A stretch of DNA of 61,779 bases from Candidatus Curtissbacteria bacterium (GTDB lineage Bacteria; Patescibacteriota; Microgenomatia; Curtissbacterales; GWA2-41-24): positions 1 to 61,779 of the forward strand of contig JAUSJC010000004.1 of assembly GCA_030647775.1 (NCBI GenBank). Direction: 5' to 3'. This document shows, piece by piece, positions 5,998 to 45,787 of this stretch. The position numbers and the translations under genes were made by a program. Within the stretch, counting starts at the first letter, position 1. Each line of letters opens with the position of its first letter. Below the pieces are notes generated by a model that saw only the letters and a program-made list of their open reading frames with translations, searched no databases and was not told the origin of the DNA.

Positions 5998-6256
5998 TCT
6001 AAATTTATTTTTTAAATGCTAAGTGAACTTAGGCATAACAAAACGGCCAACCGAAGTTAGTTTGTCCTGCTATACCAATGTGCAAAAAGTCGCACGTCCA
6101 TATTTTGCAAAAACTAGCAGATGCCTTCTGCATCTGCTAAACCCTTTCACCTCAAAAGAGCATTGCTTCTTTCAATTTTTATTATATCAGCCGCAATAAT
6201 ACCCTGTCAACCAATTAAATTAGCAATTAAAATACACTGGTGCTAGTGGCTACGAT

Positions 6257-6294
6257 AAGCAGAGCTTGTGTCCTCGACTTTGTCTGCGGACTTA
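6257..6294 (-). other. Intervening sequence 3 (38 nt) in the T stem (between positions 63/64) of the interrupted tRNA
   Basis: Removing it restores ATAGG/CCTAT. The interior is related (inverted) to 6325-6357. Confidence 0.5.
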
Positions 6295-6320
6295 AGGGAT
6301 CGAACCTATGGCCTTGGCGT

Positions 6321-6557
6321 TATTTTTCGAGCTTGTCGAGAAAAACAAGCTCTCTTATATCAGCATCGTAAACATTTCTGTGCCAGCGACAGGAATCGAA
6401 CCTGTGACCTTAGCGTTATGAGTGCTACGCTCTAACCGACTGAGCTACGCTGGCTTATTAATGTCTACGATCTGATATAGGTCAGCAAAAGCTGACGTAT
6501 ACAACAGAGGGCAAAGCCCTGCTGTTATATATCAGATTCGCCGAAGACGAAGGCTCA
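6321..6557 (-). other. Intervening sequence 2 (237 nt) at anticodon-loop position 37/38, containing a whole tRNA gene
   Basis: Bounded by CTCATA| and |A-CGCCA. Contains tRNA 6381-6454 flanked by about 20-nt inverted repeats, plus a second ATATCAG-type element (6472-6535). Confidence 0.5.
6381..6454 (-). tRNA. tRNA-Met(CAU), elongator-like (Ile2/lysidine type not excluded)
   Basis: GCCAGCG TA GCTC AGTCGGTTA GAGC G TAGCA CTCATAA CGCTA AGGTC ACAGG TTCGATT CCTGT CGCTGGC A. Confidence 0.85.
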
Positions 6558-6573
6558 TATGAGTGCCACGCTC

Positions 6574-6613
6574 CCCGCCTGCAAAAGCTGATACTTTAGC
6601 ATCTGCGGGCAGG
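6574..6613 (-). other. Intervening sequence 1 (40 nt) in the D loop of the interrupted tRNA
   Basis: An imperfect GC palindrome (CCTGCCCGCAG...TGCAGGCGGG) lies between AGTTGGTTA and GAGC. Confidence 0.5.
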
Positions 6614-6666
6614 TAACCAACTGAGCTACGCAGCCGAACTTTGCATATTCTTAGAAAAGCTCTACT

Positions 6667-6735
6667 TTTCGCAGAAAGGCTTTGCCTATTCGCAGAAAAG
6701 CTTTTGCTTATTCGCAGAAAAGCTTTTGCTTATTC
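6667..6735. repeat. Tandem repeat, period 22 nt, about 3 units (ttcgcagaaaagcttttgctta)
   Basis: Each unit is a near-palindrome around AAGCTT. The array sits immediately 5' (minus strand) of the interrupted tRNA. Confidence 0.7.
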
Positions 6736-6749
6736 TATCAAATTTTGGC

Positions 6750-6784
6750 AAAAAAAGACTCGACACCTGGCCGAGTCTTTTTTA
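6750..6784. terminator. Bidirectional rho-independent terminator candidate
   Basis: A run, then stem agactcg/cgagtct, then T run. Downstream of tRNA 6911-6981 on the minus strand. Confidence 0.55.
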
Positions 6785-7564: not shown

Positions 7565-7619
7565 ATATCAGAGGAGCGCCATCGGCAGGACGAAGTCTGC
7601 CGAGGCGACCTGCTGATAT
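7565..7619. repeat. Family E element (ATATCAG AGGAGCGCC ... GGCGACCTG CTGATAT), copy 1
   Basis: 55-nt nested hairpin. Near-identical arms at 19087-19135 and 45735-45787. Confidence 0.7.
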
Positions 7620-8589: not shown

Positions 8590-8622
8590 GGTGAGGAAAA
8601 AGTTAAGCTCGAAGAACTGTAA
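8590..8622 (+). other. Second, synonymous copy of the last ten codons plus stop of the recombinase gene
   Basis: ggt gag gaa aaa gtt aag ctc gaa gaa ctg taa = GEEKVKLEEL*, identical in peptide to 8533-8565. It differs at 8 nucleotides, all synonymous. Confidence 0.6.
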
Positions 8623-8623
8623 G

Positions 8624-9148
8624 ATGCAAGAACTACCACCACCAAATATTTCTCCAGAGGTCCTAACCGCTCTAGGATTGGATGGCGATATCGAAAGACC
8701 ATACTTAGAACAAATGCGTAAAAAAGGAAGGTCGCACTATACATGGAGAAGAGTGAGTAGAGATAAAACCACTTTTACCTTATCCGTTATGGATTGGTAT
8801 GTAAAATTCTCTATAGATAGAAAGGAGCAAATACCTGTTACTCTTCTAGATAGGTGGCGACAAAGTGCTTTGGGGTTTGAGCCTGAGGTCAGATCATTGA
8901 TTGAAAAGGGTGTCCGGGTATACGTTGAGGGATTTACGGAACAAGCATTAGATGAGAAGCAGTTTGTGAGCGCAACCGAAATGTTTGACTCAATTACCCC
9001 AGGTGGCATTACTCAAAACCTTGAGGTCATGAGCAGGCTCAAATCTGAAGCGGCATCATTCGTTTCCAATGGAAACCCATTGAGGGGACTGGAAATTGCA
9101 AGAGCAATTCAGAACATCGTAAATAGCAAACAACTTATTTCTTCTTAA
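8624..9148 (+). CDS. Hypothetical protein
   Basis: The ORF track starts at GTG 8591. ATG 8624 (MQELPPPN) follows the duplicated stop and is preferred. No known motif. Confidence 0.45.
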   Translation: MQELPPPNISPEVLTALGLDGDIERPYLEQMRKKGRSHYTWRRVSRDKTTFTLSVMDWYVKFSIDRKEQIPVTLLDRWRQSALGFEPEVRSLIEKGVRVYVEGFTEQALDEKQFVSATEMFDSITPGGITQNLEVMSRLKSEAASFVSNGNPLRGLEIARAIQNIVNSKQLISS

Positions 9149-18167: not shown

Positions 18168-18977
18168 CTAGCCAGCCGCCGATCTGCTTGCCAACCCAAA
18201 CTTGGCGTTTAAAGATTTTAGGAATTGATCTTTCTCGAAATAAACAAGCTTGACTCTATATTGCCCTCTTTCCACTCTCACACTTTGACTTTGACTAATT
18301 TTTATATGCTCCTGTCCGTCAATTACCAAAGAGATATCGTTTCCGCGAATCACCTTAACTAATATTTCATCGTTTGGCGAAAGAACTACCGATGGAACCG
18401 GCAGGCCATGGGCATTGACCGGCGTTATTAAAAGCGAATCCACTTCCGGGTCTACAATCGGCCCACCGGCCGAAAGAGAATATGCCGTCGACCCGGTTTG
18501 CGTCGCCACAATTACCCCATCCCCAGAAGTATTCAAAAACTTCTGCCCGTTTACTGTAATTTCCAGATTTACAACTCTGTACATTCCCTTCACTACAACC
18601 TCATTCAACGCCCTGTATTTGGTATTTGTTATTTGTGATTTGGGATTTGCCTCGATAGAGGCTTCTATCGTCATTCTTTCCGAAACAAAATATTTTCCGC
18701 TGATAATATCCTCTATTGCTTCTTGCCACTCATCAGCCTCTGTCGCCGTCAAAAACCCTAGCGTCCCCACATTTATCCCCACAAACGGCACGCCAAGCGC
18801 GATATGCTCGCACGCAGCATGAAGCAGCGTTCCATCCCCACCAAGTGTAATAATCAACTCCGCGTCTTTAAGGTCTTCAACTACCTCCTGACCACCACCA
18901 ACCAAAAACTTCTTAATATCAGAAGCAAGTTCTCCGGCTTTTTTAACATCTTTTGCGCTGATTATTCCAAATTTCAT
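18168..18977 (-). CDS. nadK: NAD kinase
   Basis: ITLGGDGTLL motif and NAD kinase C-terminal beta domain. KSQITNTKY is encoded by a ttgtgatttgg low-complexity repeat. Confidence 0.9.
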   Translation of the reverse strand: MKFGIISAKDVKKAGELASDIKKFLVGGGQEVVEDLKDAELIITLGGDGTLLHAACEHIALGVPFVGINVGTLGFLTATEADEWQEAIEDIISGKYFVSERMTIEASIEANPKSQITNTKYRALNEVVVKGMYRVVNLEITVNGQKFLNTSGDGVIVATQTGSTAYSLSAGGPIVDPEVDSLLITPVNAHGLPVPSVVLSPNDEILVKVIRGNDISLVIDGQEHIKISQSQSVRVERGQYRVKLVYFEKDQFLKSLNAKFGLASRSAAG

Positions 18978-18988
18978 TTTTCCTCTTC

Positions 18989-19038
18989 GTCATCCTCGCG
19001 AAAGCGAGGATCAAGATTCTCGATCTAGTGAGAATGAC
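18989..19038. repeat. Palindromic element pair (GTCATCCTCGCGAAAGCGAGGAT... / ...GAGAATGAC)
   Basis: Two adjacent hairpins between the nadK start and the tRNA locus. Confidence 0.6.
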
Positions 19039-19086
19039 ATAATTCTACTGTGGATCCGGATGGAGTCGAACCATCGACAAGACCTT

Positions 19087-19135
19087 ATATCAGCAGGTCG
19101 CCTCAGCATAAATGCTGATGGCGCTCCTCTGATAT
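19087..19135. repeat. Family E element, copy 2 (inside the interrupted tRNA)
   Basis: ATATCAG AGGAGCGCC ATCAGCATTTATGCTGA GGCGACCTG CTGATAT, read on the minus strand. Confidence 0.7.
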
Positions 19136-19148
19136 ATAAGGGCAAGTG

Positions 19149-19220
19149 TGGGCCTGGTAGGTATCGAACCTACGACATCCACCTTATAAGAGTGGCGCTC
19201 TACCACTGAGCTACAGGCCC
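19149..19220 (-). tRNA. tRNA-Ile(UAU)
   Basis: GGGCCTG TA GCTC AGTGGTA GAGC G CCACT CTTATAA GGTGG ATGTC GTAGG TTCGATA CCTAC CAGGCCC A. The body is Ile-like. Confidence 0.85.
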
Positions 19221-19376
19221 GCACTTGCCACTTATTTAAGAGTCCCGTTTTACCGTTAAACTACGGATCCAATACGCCAAATTTTACCATTAATTTTTGG
19301 AAAATTATAATCTCGTTTACCCGCCATCTATATTTATTTAGAGGCGGGCCCGATGCACGATCTCCACATTCACCGA

Positions 19377-32077: not shown

Positions 32078-32089
32078 ATATTTTTAGTT

Positions 32090-32173
32090 GTCATTGCGAG
32101 CGAGTGAAACGAGCGCGGCAATCTCTTTTTAGATTGCTTCGTCATTCTGCAATGCAGAACTCCTCGCAATGAC
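32090..32173. repeat. Family A element between sufD and sufS
   Basis: gtcattgcgagcgag...cctcgcaatgac, with an internal gtcattctgcaatgcagaa hairpin. Confidence 0.7.
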
Positions 32174-34791: not shown

Positions 34792-35669
34792 ATAGTAGTA
34801 AATGCCCCGTATCCTTTCTCTTCAACCTTTTGCGCTAAACCCGCTTTGCCGGATTTAATAATCTGCCCGTCTACCATCACATGCACAAAATCCGGCTTTA
34901 GATATTTAAGGATACGGGCGTAGTGAGTTATAAGTATGATTGATGATTGTCGATTGTTGATTGTAAATTGTTTAATCGCAGAAGCAACTAATTTTAAACC
35001 ATCAACGTCCAAACCAGAATCAATCTCATCCAAAATCACTAGTTTCGGTTTCAAAGCCATCATCTGCAAAATCTCATTTCGCTTTTTTTCTCCACCGGAA
35101 AATCCCTCATTGAGTGAACGTCTTAAAAAGTCCTCCGGAAGTTTAAGTTCCGACATATACTTTTTGAGTTCGTCACGGAATTGCTTAGCACTGTCATTGC
35201 GAGGAGTCACAAACGACGAAGCAATCCCGCCATCGTCATCCTGAACCGATTCGGCCTGAGGGCTCACGGCCTCGAAGGCTTGATTCAGGATCTGTTTCCC
35301 CGTTTTGAGATTGCTTCTCCGTCGATTGACGGCTCGCAATGACAATAGGGAGTTTGACGTTTTCGCTTTTCTAAGAAAATTAAAAACCGAAACTCCCGGA
35401 ACTTCCACCGGGTGCTGGAATCCCAAAAAAATTCCCAATTTCGCCCGCTTATCCGGCGCTAACTTTGTAATGTCCTGACTATTCACTATGCATTTTCCAC
35501 TAACCACTTTATAATTCGGGTGCCCCGCGATAACCTGCGCCAAAGTCGACTTTCCGCTTCCATTCGGCCCCATGAGCACGTGAATCTGGCCACTACCAAC
35601 TTCCAGATCCACGCCCTTCAAGATTTCTTTATCACTGACACTTGCTTTAAGATTCTTAATCTTTAGCAT
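34782..35669 (-). CDS. sufC: Fe-S cluster assembly ATPase SufC
   Basis: GPNGSGKST, FSGGEKKRNEILQ, LDEIDSGLD, THY. Start placed at MLKIKNL after a GGAGG. About 50 extra residues in the helical subdomain. Confidence 0.9.
   Translation of the reverse strand: MLKIKNLKASVSDKEILKGVDLEVGSGQIHVLMGPNGSGKSTLAQVIAGHPNYKVVSGKCIVNSQDITKLAPDKRAKLGIFLGFQHPVEVPGVSVFNFLRKAKTSNSLLSLRAVNRRRSNLKTGKQILNQAFEAVSPQAESVQDDDGGIASSFVTPRNDSAKQFRDELKKYMSELKLPEDFLRRSLNEGFSGGEKKRNEILQMMALKPKLVILDEIDSGLDVDGLKLVASAIKQFTINNRQSSIILITHYARILKYLKPDFVHVMVDGQIIKSGKAGLAQKVEEKGYGAFTTMSS
35193..35343. repeat. Nested insertion inside sufC: family A element carrying a family B element (35235-35292)
   Basis: gtcattgcgagg...[gtcatcctgaac...gattcaggatc]...gctcgcaatgac. 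Translated through as SLRAVNRRRSNL...GGIASSFVTPRND. Confidence 0.8.
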
Positions 35670-38763: not shown

Positions 38764-39984
38764 GTGGAATCACACGAAATCCCAAAAATAGCGGGGCAGG
38801 AATTTACTTCTCGCCCTAACCCTGATTTCAAAACACAGACTTGCTTTATGACTCTTCGGGAGATAAATAAGCAAAAACCTGAAATTGCCCCCGATATGCA
38901 AACAATTTTAGAGGAGATCGAAAGGCAAAGCATCGATAATTTCGCTATTTACGAATCGAAAGAATTCCCTGGTGTTGCGTTTAGCTATACAAAACTTACT
39001 GTTACACCTGAAATAGTCAAAAAAATAGCAGGTGAAAATTACAGGCTTCCGGATAGTAACCCTCAAGACCAGAACCCCGAAAATAGGGTAATTTTCGAGT
39101 TCGGCGTTTTCACCCCACCTCCAAATGGTCATGCACTTAGCCTCCTCGACATGCCCATCGACCGCTTTATTCGAAACATTCCAAAAGTATTTCACACAAA
39201 GGAAGGCCATATACCACCAACAATTGACATTTACGCACTAGGAAGCCCAATAGGCTATGGTGGTACGGTCACACCAGAATATCTAGAAGCGCTAATTAAA
39301 AACGGACTTGAGGCAAACGGACGCATATATGGCGAGTTCATGAATGAAAAATTAAGAGATCTAGACCCAAAAAACACGCATGTTCTAGCCCAAGGAGCAT
39401 CTATGGGAGCTATTAATGCAGATCAGGCGGTACTACATTTACTGCCAGATTTTAAAGAACAAACCCAGGTTCTTCTCGACGTACCTGCAGGTCACCACAA
39501 CCCAAAACTCGTAAATCGATTAAAGGGTTTGCAAACCGCCGTCATGTTTGGAGCTGAAACGGGTACCAGAATGTTATTTGACCCAAAAATGAAAGGTCTG
39601 GGGAACCGGACAAAAAAATTATATCAATACTTGTCACAAGCAAAAAACATACCCGCCGACGGATCAGACCAAACGAGACTAAAATGGAGATGTCTTTACG
39701 AAACTGGTTTAAAACTTGTTAAAGGAAGTCCCCTGGAAGAATCCCAACGACACTTCATAAGAGCCGGCATTTATGACCCTCTTACAACCGGACCAAAGAG
39801 ATTTTTTGACACTTATAGGCGATGGAATAAGAACATAGTTTTTAAAGGAATTGGTCATTCTCTAGAGTTTCCAATAGCAACAACTCATTTCTGGTTCTAC
39901 ACACAAAGGTTCAATAGGTGGGAACGGATAATTAAAAATTGTAAGGGAATAAAGGAAACTAAAAAACTATTTCCTGAACTGTAG
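38764..39984 (+). CDS. Hypothetical protein with GxSxG (AQGASMGA), possible alpha/beta hydrolase
   Basis: 406-aa ORF with a GTG start. The only motif seen is the nucleophile elbow. Confidence 0.4.
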   Translation: MESHEIPKIAGQEFTSRPNPDFKTQTCFMTLREINKQKPEIAPDMQTILEEIERQSIDNFAIYESKEFPGVAFSYTKLTVTPEIVKKIAGENYRLPDSNPQDQNPENRVIFEFGVFTPPPNGHALSLLDMPIDRFIRNIPKVFHTKEGHIPPTIDIYALGSPIGYGGTVTPEYLEALIKNGLEANGRIYGEFMNEKLRDLDPKNTHVLAQGASMGAINADQAVLHLLPDFKEQTQVLLDVPAGHHNPKLVNRLKGLQTAVMFGAETGTRMLFDPKMKGLGNRTKKLYQYLSQAKNIPADGSDQTRLKWRCLYETGLKLVKGSPLEESQRHFIRAGIYDPLTTGPKRFFDTYRRWNKNIVFKGIGHSLEFPIATTHFWFYTQRFNRWERIIKNCKGIKETKKLFPEL

Positions 39985-40711
39985 ACTTAACCTTCACAAT
40001 CCCACTTTCAATTGTCTTTACACCCTTCTTCCCTACCTCCAAAGACTCTACCTTAGAAATCACCTTTCCCGGGACTGCTCTAATTTCTGTTGGCATGTTA
40101 AATCCAACCACAATGGCAAGTACTGCCAAAATCACAAATGACATAAGAGCAGGAACAACAATGTACCTTGAATTAGGAATAACCAGTTTGTTCAATACCC
40201 CCTTTTCGTTATCTACACGAGCCTCCTCAAACGTCCCTTCGGCAATCTCTCTTTGTACGCGCTCTAGTGCACCCAGAAGAATTGCCTGTGTCCTTACCTC
40301 AATGACTCTTCCAAAAAAGAAGTCCATAAACGTATTCTGACAAATCAATACTTTTATTTTTACCTTAGTTTTATCCCCAACAGAAGTAATGTTAATGTTT
40401 TGAATTATCTCTCCTCCAAATGGCAAATTAATCTCTTGCTTAACCTCTTTGTTTGGTACAATTTTAACAATTTTGTGCTTAACCTTTATAGGAAAATATA
40501 AGATGGTTGAAATATCCCACCAGGAGCTTCCAACTTCAAAGCTGCCGGGGGCTTTTACAAAGTGCACATATTTAAAATATCTCGGATAATTTGAAACATT
40601 TGAGGCAATTTGCCAAAGTCTTATCCTACTAGCCTCAAGGTCTATGACCAGTTGCACTCTTCTTAATTTTATTAGCATGCATTTTTGAAGAATCGCCACC
40701 CAATAAACCAT
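39959..40711 (-). CDS. Hypothetical protein, SRPBCC-like N-domain plus TM
   Basis: WQIASNVSNYPRYFKYV resembles polyketide-cyclase/SRPBCC starts. One TM. Confidence 0.35.
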   Translation of the reverse strand: MVYWVAILQKCMLIKLRRVQLVIDLEASRIRLWQIASNVSNYPRYFKYVHFVKAPGSFEVGSSWWDISTILYFPIKVKHKIVKIVPNKEVKQEINLPFGGEIIQNINITSVGDKTKVKIKVLICQNTFMDFFFGRVIEVRTQAILLGALERVQREIAEGTFEEARVDNEKGVLNKLVIPNSRYIVVPALMSFVILAVLAIVVGFNMPTEIRAVPGKVISKVESLEVGKKGVKTIESGIVKVKSTVQEIVF

Positions 40712-45734: not shown

Positions 45735-45787
45735 ATATCAGAGGAGCGCCACGTTCAGTTCACATGAATGAGGCGACCTGCTGATAT
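45735..45787. repeat. Family E element, copy 3
   Basis: atatcagaggagcgcc acgttcagttcacatgaatga ggcgacctgctgatat. Confidence 0.7.

Follow-up and report, generated by a model that had tools for sequence, protein, structure and literature searches.

Transfer RNA genes are among the most conserved genes of bacteria, and the single-copy ones are usually treated as untouchable. Genomic islands and prophages integrate in tRNA genes and restore them, at sites of the Islander type (PMC4383910). Group I introns reside in the anticodon loops of bacterial tRNA genes, as in cyanobacterial tRNA-Leu(UAA) and Azoarcus tRNA-Ile (PMC3984707), and the disrupted tRNA genes of archaea and eukaryotes include those with bulge-helix-bulge introns as well as split and permuted tRNAs (PMC4090602, PMC3978253). 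Here we analyze a different arrangement, found in a 61,779-nucleotide (nt) stretch of DNA from a Candidatus Curtissbacteria bacterium (GenBank assembly GCA_030647775.1, contig JAUSJC010000004.1, positions 1 to 61,779; hereinafter, the window). At positions 19051-19270 of the minus strand, a complete tRNA-Ile(UAU) gene and a short hairpin are lodged in the anticodon loop of another tRNA gene. This arrangement is probably not an intron; instead, insertion of hairpin elements that duplicate TATA appears to have disrupted a resident tRNA-Ile(UAU) gene, with a cargo tRNA of the same anticodon coming to the rescue.

The interrupted gene and its intact orthologs

The outer gene consists of two pieces of the minus strand, 19270-19239 and 19089-19051, which, when joined by hand before tRNA calling, are recognized by ARAGORN as a 71-nt tRNA-Ile(tat). 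The preliminary description of the window had assembled a tRNA of this length from the flanking pieces, and the call indeed holds at every junction tried. When introns were allowed, ARAGORN did not call the outer gene, and a relaxed threshold yielded only spurious intron-containing calls inside open reading frames (ORFs). Relatives were found by scanning public genomes and metagenomes with the 5' half of the outer tRNA as the query and by looking up contigs that encode homologs of the adjacent NAD kinase (18168-18977, minus strand; Pfam NAD_kinase and NAD_kinase_C); L-numbers label these contigs, and the NAD kinase gene served as the anchor for recognizing the orthologous locus.

The joined pieces are identical to intact orthologs at 70 of 71 (L033), 69 of 71 (L036) and 68 of 71 (L008) positions, and the intact L033 gene scores 64.9 bits on Rfam RF00005. 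In L008 and L012, an intact 71-nt tRNA-Ile(UAU) gene lies between the NAD kinase start and a promoter sequence that is the same as in the window; in L033 and L036, the intact gene has a related promoter and directly precedes the NAD kinase start. The 5' piece (19239-19270), which corresponds to tRNA positions 1-33 and includes the 5' strand of the acceptor stem, the D arm, the 5' strand of the anticodon stem, C32 and U33, is one D-loop base apart from L033 and L036 and the same as in L008. The 3' piece (19051-19085; positions 38-73), which includes the 3' strand of the anticodon stem, the variable loop, the T arm, the 3' strand of the acceptor stem and the discriminator A, shows 100% identity with L033.

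The empty site is preserved in L033, L036 and L008, where it reads GGGACT CT-TATA-AGGTCT, and deletion of 19235-19090 from the window restores CT-TATA-AGG (the outer sequence across the join is GGGACUCUUAUAAGGUCU, and the reconstructed empty site is GGGACTCTTATAAGGTCT). The insert is specific to the lineage of the window, these relatives having the site in its empty form. Judging by the orthologs, the outer gene is the tRNA-Ile(UAU) originally resident in this lineage, and its ancestral anticodon loop is CTTATAA. Two loops had initially been put forward for the outer tRNA, namely, CUUAAAA, with the Leu anticodon UAA, and, at shifted junctions, CUUAUAA, with the anticodon UAU; because the intact orthologs at this locus carry UAU, we adopt the latter, and the Leu(UAA) identity is rejected.

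The 149-nt insert contains no ORF and consists of a tRNA and a hairpin, ending in ...CTGA(TA). Along the minus strand, the order is GGGACT CT-TAAA-(TAAGTGGCAAGTGC, inner tRNA, CACTTGCCCTTA)-TATA-(TCAGAGG...CCTGCTGA)-TATA-AGGTCT, where the two segments in parentheses would represent a tandem insertion of two hairpin units into a single TATA. The tRNA-bearing unit (19137-19234) comprises a leader (19234-19221), the inner tRNA (19220-19149) and a trailer (19148-19137), of which the leader and the trailer form inverted repeats (TAAGTGGCAAGTG / CACTTGCCCTTA) that lengthen the inner acceptor stem by a 13-bp helix. The inner tRNA-Ile(UAU) is intact, as originally noted (it is called by ARAGORN and scores 74.6 bits on RF00005, E = 1.6e-14), does not encode CCA, and is presumed to be the working gene. 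The left flank of this unit, TAAA (19235-19238), is one base off TATA and could be a degenerate leftmost copy of the target, to judge from the two exact copies of TATA that lie downstream. One of these exact copies, at 19133-19136, is located between the two hairpin units, and the other, the right-hand target copy at 19086-19089, also provides T34-A37 of the outer anticodon loop. The second unit, flanked by these two copies, is a closed hairpin, the core of an element of family E (19090-19132; TCAGAGGAGCGCC...GGCGACCTGCTGA). All these features are on the minus strand. The minimum free energy fold of 19050-19270 (-102.8 kcal/mol, z = -7.8 compared to shuffles) is a three-way junction that shows the outer acceptor stem; it contains the E hairpin as well as the predicted 13-bp helix, which stacks on the acceptor stem of the inner tRNA. 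Separately, many tRNA-Ile(UAU) genes in phage contigs (viral, L018-L028) possess exactly the anticodon arm of the inner tRNA, CCACTCTTATAAGGTGG; the scan of viral contigs with this arm returned only unrelated phage tRNA-Ile(UAU) genes, and the scan with the E arm returned chance hits only.

The region upstream of the outer tRNA (19271-19311, minus strand) contains TATAAT at 19309-19304 and an extended -10-like box, TGGTAAAAT, at 19289-19281, 10 nt before outer position 1, and, going by consensus, it would act as a promoter. The same sequence, GATTATAATTTTCCAAAAATTAATGGTAAAATTTGGCGTAyT, precedes the intact tRNA in L008 and L012 and is partly present before the tRNA in L005, L033 and L034.

A nested locus could, in principle, be an assembly chimera produced by the collapse of two similar tRNA genes. 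The locus is hard to assemble because, in two close relatives, the Logan contigs (L006:1-30 and L014:1-30) stop inside the tRNA-Ile(UAU) gene, beside the anticodon arm; this hints at repeat- or polymorphism-induced assembly breaks, and further insertions are possibly present there. However, a separate Logan assembly (L001, SRR13727527) shows no difference from the window across the nested locus, the other nested cases described below were each recovered from 2-3 separate assemblies, and the outer and inner tRNAs have only ~13 nt of identical sequence in common, so the probability of a chimera is practically negligible.

Mobile hairpins with a 4-bp TATA duplication

The E hairpin is present in three copies in the window (0 expected), and its terminus motif, TATATCAG, occurs 10 times compared to the expectation of 0.74. 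The copies follow the pattern ATATCAG...CTGATAT, with an invariant basal stem and a variable, unalignable apical part. In addition to the copy in the nested locus, one copy (7565-7619, plus strand) abuts a promoter -35 box, that of a Xer-type recombinase gene, and another (45735-45787, plus strand) occupies a divergent intergenic region; additional copies were detected in L008, L034 and L015.

A second series of empty and filled sites comes from an orthologous site between a cytidylate-kinase-like gene and its neighbour, where the target is a promoter -10 box. In L040 and L037, the site is empty and shows a plain -10 box (..A TATA AT..); L034 reads TATA-(TCAGCCATCGCTAAAGCGATCCTGA)-TATA; L008 contains a unit of the L034 type and an E copy in tandem; and the window contains none. 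The parse with TCAG...CTGA termini and a 4-bp TATA duplication is the only one that reproduces both the promoter site and the tRNA site, and the parses with a 2-bp duplication of TA or AT, or with no duplication, which fail to reproduce both empty sites, were rejected. The search for TATA-flanked units with perfect terminal repeats found none because the E stem contains a bulged G; a folding-based search identified four TATA-flanked units, all of them in the two nested loci of the window. In the manner of transposable elements of the miniature inverted-repeat type (MITEs) and repetitive extragenic palindromic (REP)-like elements, E hairpins have hairpin termini without coding capacity, are accompanied by a TATA duplication when filled sites are compared with empty ones, and form dispersed, variable copies. 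They are mobile DNA elements that duplicate 4 bp, TATA, and have been gained and lost.

These observations bear on the proposal, made in the preliminary description, of an element that targets anticodon loops while carrying a replacement tRNA. Replacement by a tRNA with the same anticodon is borne out, but recognition of the loop as such is not, given that the duplicated sequence is TATA and that promoter -10 boxes are invaded as well.

Insertion into TATAAT leaves ...CTGA-TATAAT, that is, an extended -10 consensus (TGATATAAT), 6-7 nt before the start codon (L008:3765-3840, L034:4625-4653). A native promoter in the window (6183-6190), CTGATATAAT (CTGTTATAAT in L041), has nearly the same sequence as the element-derived one. 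The end of the element would seem to mimic a promoter, and the hairpins may be tolerated in promoters because the insertion rebuilds the extended -10 box.

In some integrase subfamilies, crossover takes place in the anticodon loop, and the insert might be considered a remnant of site-specific integration, whereby an island or phage with a tyrosine integrase used this loop as attB and was later deleted. The circularized tRNA unit would bear a hairpin resembling an anticodon arm (CACTTGCC-CTTAAATAAGT-GGCAAGTG), the gene of a Xer-type tyrosine recombinase adjoins an E copy, and tRNA genes are the usual targets of islands, which normally restore the split gene (PMC4383910). Yet the insert is only ~150 nt long and contains no ORF, neither it nor its immediate vicinity includes integrase or island genes, the nearest recombinase gene is 11 kb away, and, instead of a partial tRNA duplication, only 4 nt (TATA) are repeated. 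Moreover, the putative attP and attB arms are dissimilar, the same elements are found in promoter TATA boxes, and the recombinase is conserved like a housekeeping Xer protein, all of which makes such an origin quite improbable.

The Xer-type protein, the only recombinase encoded in the window, is housekeeping-like and 80-91% conserved across the clade. As the candidate mobilizing enzyme, it was rejected, considering this conservation and the lack of shared arms among the target sites. In L041 (3966-4331) and L042 (1171-1536), the recombinase gene is followed by a gene with 23S_rRNA_IVP / bAvd domains; the counterpart position in the window (8591-9148) is occupied by an ORF of 185 amino acids (aa) without a family match.

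Recurrent nesting in other lineages and in a tRNA-Met gene

The nesting is not confined to the window: three other lineages (L034/L035, L037-L039 and L015-L017) have a tRNA-Ile(UAU) nested in tRNA-Ile(UAU) at their NAD kinase locus, and among the ten lineages in which this locus is fully assembled, four are nested and six are intact. In L034/L035, there are a complete outer gene and a duplicated TATA, and the inner tRNA is enclosed between TATCTTGCTC and GAGCAAGATA and followed by another hairpin; the L034 locus folds as a double cloverleaf. In L037-L039, a unit of the form TATA(TCAG...inner tRNA...CTGA) is accompanied by a hairpin, and the locus as a whole is turned around with respect to the NAD kinase gene. 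In L015-L017, several hairpins accompany the inner tRNA, and the outer gene ends after the anticodon stem.

The other nested locus of the window, reported together with the first, proved to be real as well (6247-6635, minus strand). Here, an outer tRNA-Met(CAU) in four pieces (6635-6614, 6573-6558, 6320-6293 and 6254-6247) surrounds an intact inner tRNA-Met(CAU) at 6454-6381, and the anticodon loop holds an array of TATA-separated hairpin units, one of which has the structure TATA(TCAG...tRNA-Met(CAU)...CTGA)TATA. The outer gene is broken by three insertions, and an intact ortholog is found in L041. A 40-nt GC-rich hairpin in the D loop (6574-6613) and an insert of 38 nt that separates the T stem from the 3' strand of the acceptor stem (6255-6292) lack TATA flanks, so other kinds of small insertions also enter the outer tRNA-Met pseudogene. 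Upstream of this locus (6660-6760), there are ~22-nt tandem repeats (AATAGGCAAAGCCTTTCTGCGA-like); their conservation in L041 (1930-2000) suggests a regulatory array rather than junk.

Altogether, the pattern recurs in five nested cases, which bears out the initial view that it is no coincidence, and the match between the inner and outer anticodons extends to all five. Because the inner tRNAs all differ, these cases represent separate events. The same unit architecture surrounds the other inner tRNAs, in the tRNA-Met locus, L015, L034 and L037, and TATC(AG)...(CT)GATA brackets the units in three of these four cases. The outer copies form a decay series: the outer tRNA-Ile of the window is intact, that of L034 has a C4.A69 mismatch in the acceptor stem, in L015 there is no sequence 3' of the anticodon stem, and, at the far end, the outer tRNA-Met of the window shows three insertions and stem mismatches.

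The recurrence also bears on the possibility that a contiguous foreign or paralogous piece containing the leader, tRNA, trailer and E hairpin was patched in by microhomology-mediated repair or after DNA uptake, in which case E, at most, would be mobile. Consistent with such templated or illegitimate insertion, the junction duplications are short and variable (TA or TAAA/TATA in the tRNA-Ile locus of the window, TATA in L034, ATA in the tRNA-Met locus and none in L015), neither the inner tRNAs nor their flanks are related from case to case, each insert, with its leader of 10-21 nt and its 3' hairpin, resembles a small gene unit, and the right end of E plus TAAG has 7 nt (TATAAGG) in common with the 3' part of the loop. 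We nevertheless regard this scenario as unlikely because TATC(AG)/(CT)GATA termini keep recurring around the inner tRNAs, exact TATA sequences are present on either side in the clean cases, cargo-free hairpins duplicate TATA at a non-tRNA site as well, and the anticodon loop is the site in five of the five insertions.

The NAD kinase locus harbors at least six distinct tRNA-Ile(UAU) sequences (in the window, L005, L008, L015, L034, L037 and L040), with the anticodon stems CCACT/GGTGG, GGACT/GGTCT, CGAAT/GTTCG, CTACT/GGTAG, GGTGT/ACACC and CCACT/AGTGG. The NAD kinases of these lineages are 69-84% identical to that of the window and, by this sequence comparison, allele turnover at the tRNA-Ile(UAU) locus is unusually fast for a tRNA. 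Among close relatives, the tRNA-Ile(UAU) upstream of the NAD kinase gene occurs in two orientations: the inverted forms (L004:2889-2962, L014:1-30 and L037:1240-1460, in contrast to L005, L008 and L033) have their own downstream flank (AGCTAATTYTARCATA..) and their own promoter-like box, TGTTAAAAT; the acceptor stem, TGGATCCG/CGGATCCA, is itself palindromic.

Two other features of the window can be mentioned. A dispersed repeat of family D1 (TGTCATT...GACGAAG) is inserted at 18978-19050 (minus strand), between the 3' end of the outer tRNA and the NAD kinase start codon; L008 and L005 lack this insertion and continue from the tRNA 3' end with ACCAAG-ATG. Copies of the repeat, TGTCATTGCGAGG...GACGAAGCAATCCC, are located at 18978-19050, 1094-1130, 32089-32125 and 35192-35228. 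Within a stretch of lower G+C content (0.39-0.41), two ORFs, 38764-39984 (plus strand, 406 aa, no Pfam or NCBIfam match) and 39959-40711 (minus strand, 250 aa, no Pfam match), could be foreign DNA.

Probable gene replacement rather than splicing

Intervening sequences in tRNA genes bring splicing to mind, and a processing pathway had been suggested for this locus; that suggestion was not upheld. The fold of 19050-19270 contains no bulge-helix-bulge motif (two 3-nt bulges, 4 bp apart) at the junctions, and the junction sequences and the inserts differ in every nested case. Intron_gpI gave no hit at the gathering threshold, and relaxing the cutoff to E <= 10 on the locus brought up no signal of group I/II introns either. 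The 149-nt insert also departs from the size and the 3' end of group I introns, which measure some 200 nt or more and terminate in G. In an endonuclease-spliced intron, both exons would be conserved, whereas the outer genes in L015, L034 and the tRNA-Met locus of the window are altered. Among the ORFs of the 62-kb window, we saw no gene for a tRNA splicing endonuclease or ligase. With neither the motif nor a covariance match, with empty sites in relatives and with outer copies in decay, bulge-helix-bulge and group I/II introns were rejected. Recombination of two tRNA genes at their palindromic anticodon loops was rejected as well: it would yield chimeras rather than nested genes, and the acceptor stems of both tRNAs are self-consistent.

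A broader variant is that a 220-nt transcript matures into both tRNAs or that precise excision of the DNA restores the outer gene, as a reversible isoform switch. The outer halves are undecayed (70 of 71 positions identical to L033), the outer gene of L034 is nearly intact, the region folds as a compact double cloverleaf, and HUH-type hairpin elements excise precisely. However, besides the lack of bulge-helix-bulge and group I/II signals, the host is bacterial: genes for F0F1 ATP synthase subunits, FtsH, SufB/SufS and a bacterial TrpRS are present in the window, the homologs of the NAD kinase carry the name Candidatus Curtissbacteria, and the source is a bacterium of the Candidate Phyla Radiation (CPR), with an archaeon excluded. 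Furthermore, the junctions and inserts are not conserved between the cases, relatives have empty sites, the outer copies are truncated in L015 and degraded in the tRNA-Met locus, and the same hairpins also occupy untranscribed promoter DNA. We consider maturation or excision of this kind very improbable.

Under the hypothesis of insertion and replacement, the anticodon loop CT-TATA-A would have been invaded by short, non-coding hairpin elements that duplicate TATA. The insertion would destroy the resident gene, with no splicing involved, and the cell would survive thanks to the delivery, by the same insertion, of a working tRNA with the same anticodon. Most likely, transcription would start at the resident promoter and run through the outer 5' half into the inner tRNA, which would be freed by RNase P and 3'-end processing; because CCA is not encoded, it would be added after processing. 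The outer tRNA would be inactive, and its halves would decay afterwards. The sequence TATA arises in the anticodon loop only from UAU with A37 or from the normally unused anticodon AUA. The tRNA-Ile(UAU) gene would accordingly be hit because its loop, CTTATAA, contains TATA, and the inner and outer anticodons would match because only cognate-bearing insertions survive in a presumably single-copy essential gene.

The tRNA-bearing unit would have moved as one piece, possibly with the aid of a hairpin- or single-strand-specific transposase. The leaders of 10-21 nt equal the usual distance between the -10 box and the tRNA 5' end in the native genes seen here and, because of this fit, it may be speculated that cargo units were cut out at the TATA of donor promoters. 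The TATA-separated tandem arrays and the apparent tolerance of any hairpin interior recall, by analogy, single-strand (HUH-type) transposition; no HUH-type enzyme was seen among the ORFs of the window.

Several observations weigh against insertion and replacement as formulated here. The tRNA-bearing unit ends in TAAG/CTTA rather than TCAG/CTGA, and its left flank is TAAA rather than TATA; because of these deviations, its membership in the E class depends on the architecture together with one assumed mutation. The E copies at 7565 and 45735 are flanked by TATA/TATT, which are not exact duplications, and no transposase was found among the window ORFs of >= 140 aa. The five tRNA-bearing units are all different, each occurring at a single site, and their inner tRNAs and flanks are unrelated. 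Finally, the undecayed outer halves (70 of 71) fit a recent insertion but also continued selection.

As a tentative generalization of insertion and replacement, which we hold less firmly, Curtissbacteria might carry tiny hairpin transposons with whole tRNAs as cargo, which land in the anticodon-loop TATA of the cognate tRNA-Ile(UAU) gene, kill this gene while providing one of their own, and thus behave as self-complementing selfish tRNA genes that drive allele turnover. In a variant of this proposal, precise excision would make the tRNA switch reversible. If insertion and replacement hold, a single step suffices to replace an essential tRNA gene, with a non-coding insertion killing the resident and bringing the substitute; the unusually wide range of tRNA-Ile(UAU) alleles found at a single locus of a CPR lineage would be explained, and a cargo-carrying form would be added to the hairpin repeats of bacteria. 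There is also a practical aspect. Standard tRNA finders report the inner gene only, and intron-aware tools could take such loci for introns or for anomalous tRNAs, such as the apparent Leu(UAA) in this case.

The literature searches retrieved no description of nested tRNAs, of tRNA introns in CPR bacteria or of MITEs with tRNA cargo, and the nested loci partially resemble several known systems. As in the case of tRNA islands, mobile DNA splits a tRNA gene, for some islands in the anticodon loop, the supply of the tRNA is maintained, and a displaced fragment remains. However, tRNA islands are kilobases long, encode an integrase and bring only the 3' part of the same tRNA, from which a hybrid gene is rebuilt, whereas here a complete, different tRNA is placed between the old halves by ~150 nt of non-coding DNA, with only TATA repeated. 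Like group I introns of tRNA genes, the insert is located in the anticodon loop of a bacterial tRNA gene and would be neutral for the host; those introns are neutral due to self-splicing, whereas here there is no ribozyme core, and neutrality would stem from the replacement gene. With the disrupted tRNA genes of archaea and eukaryotes, the nested loci share a break in or near the anticodon loop and complementary flanks by the junctions; those genes depend on a splicing endonuclease, bulge-helix-bulge motifs and conserved exons, but here the motif is lacking and the outer copies decay.

Another close relationship is with bacterial hairpin repeats. The Correia elements of Neisseria duplicate TA and create promoters, and arrays of REP sequences and bacterial interspersed mosaic elements (BIMEs) are mobilized by RAYT transposases. 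Like MITE and REP repeats, the hairpins described here are short, non-coding, palindromic and intergenic, vary in presence, have an AT-rich target duplication, form tandem arrays and possess ends that recreate promoters. They differ in that the units are as small as 25 nt, with ~4-7 nt of conserved termini and a TATA duplication, and in that the cargo of some units is a whole tRNA gene, the unit being lodged inside the cognate tRNA gene. What sets the arrangement apart from tRNA islands, hairpin repeats and group I introns is a complete substitute tRNA that is carried by a non-coding hairpin unit and resides inside the cognate gene.

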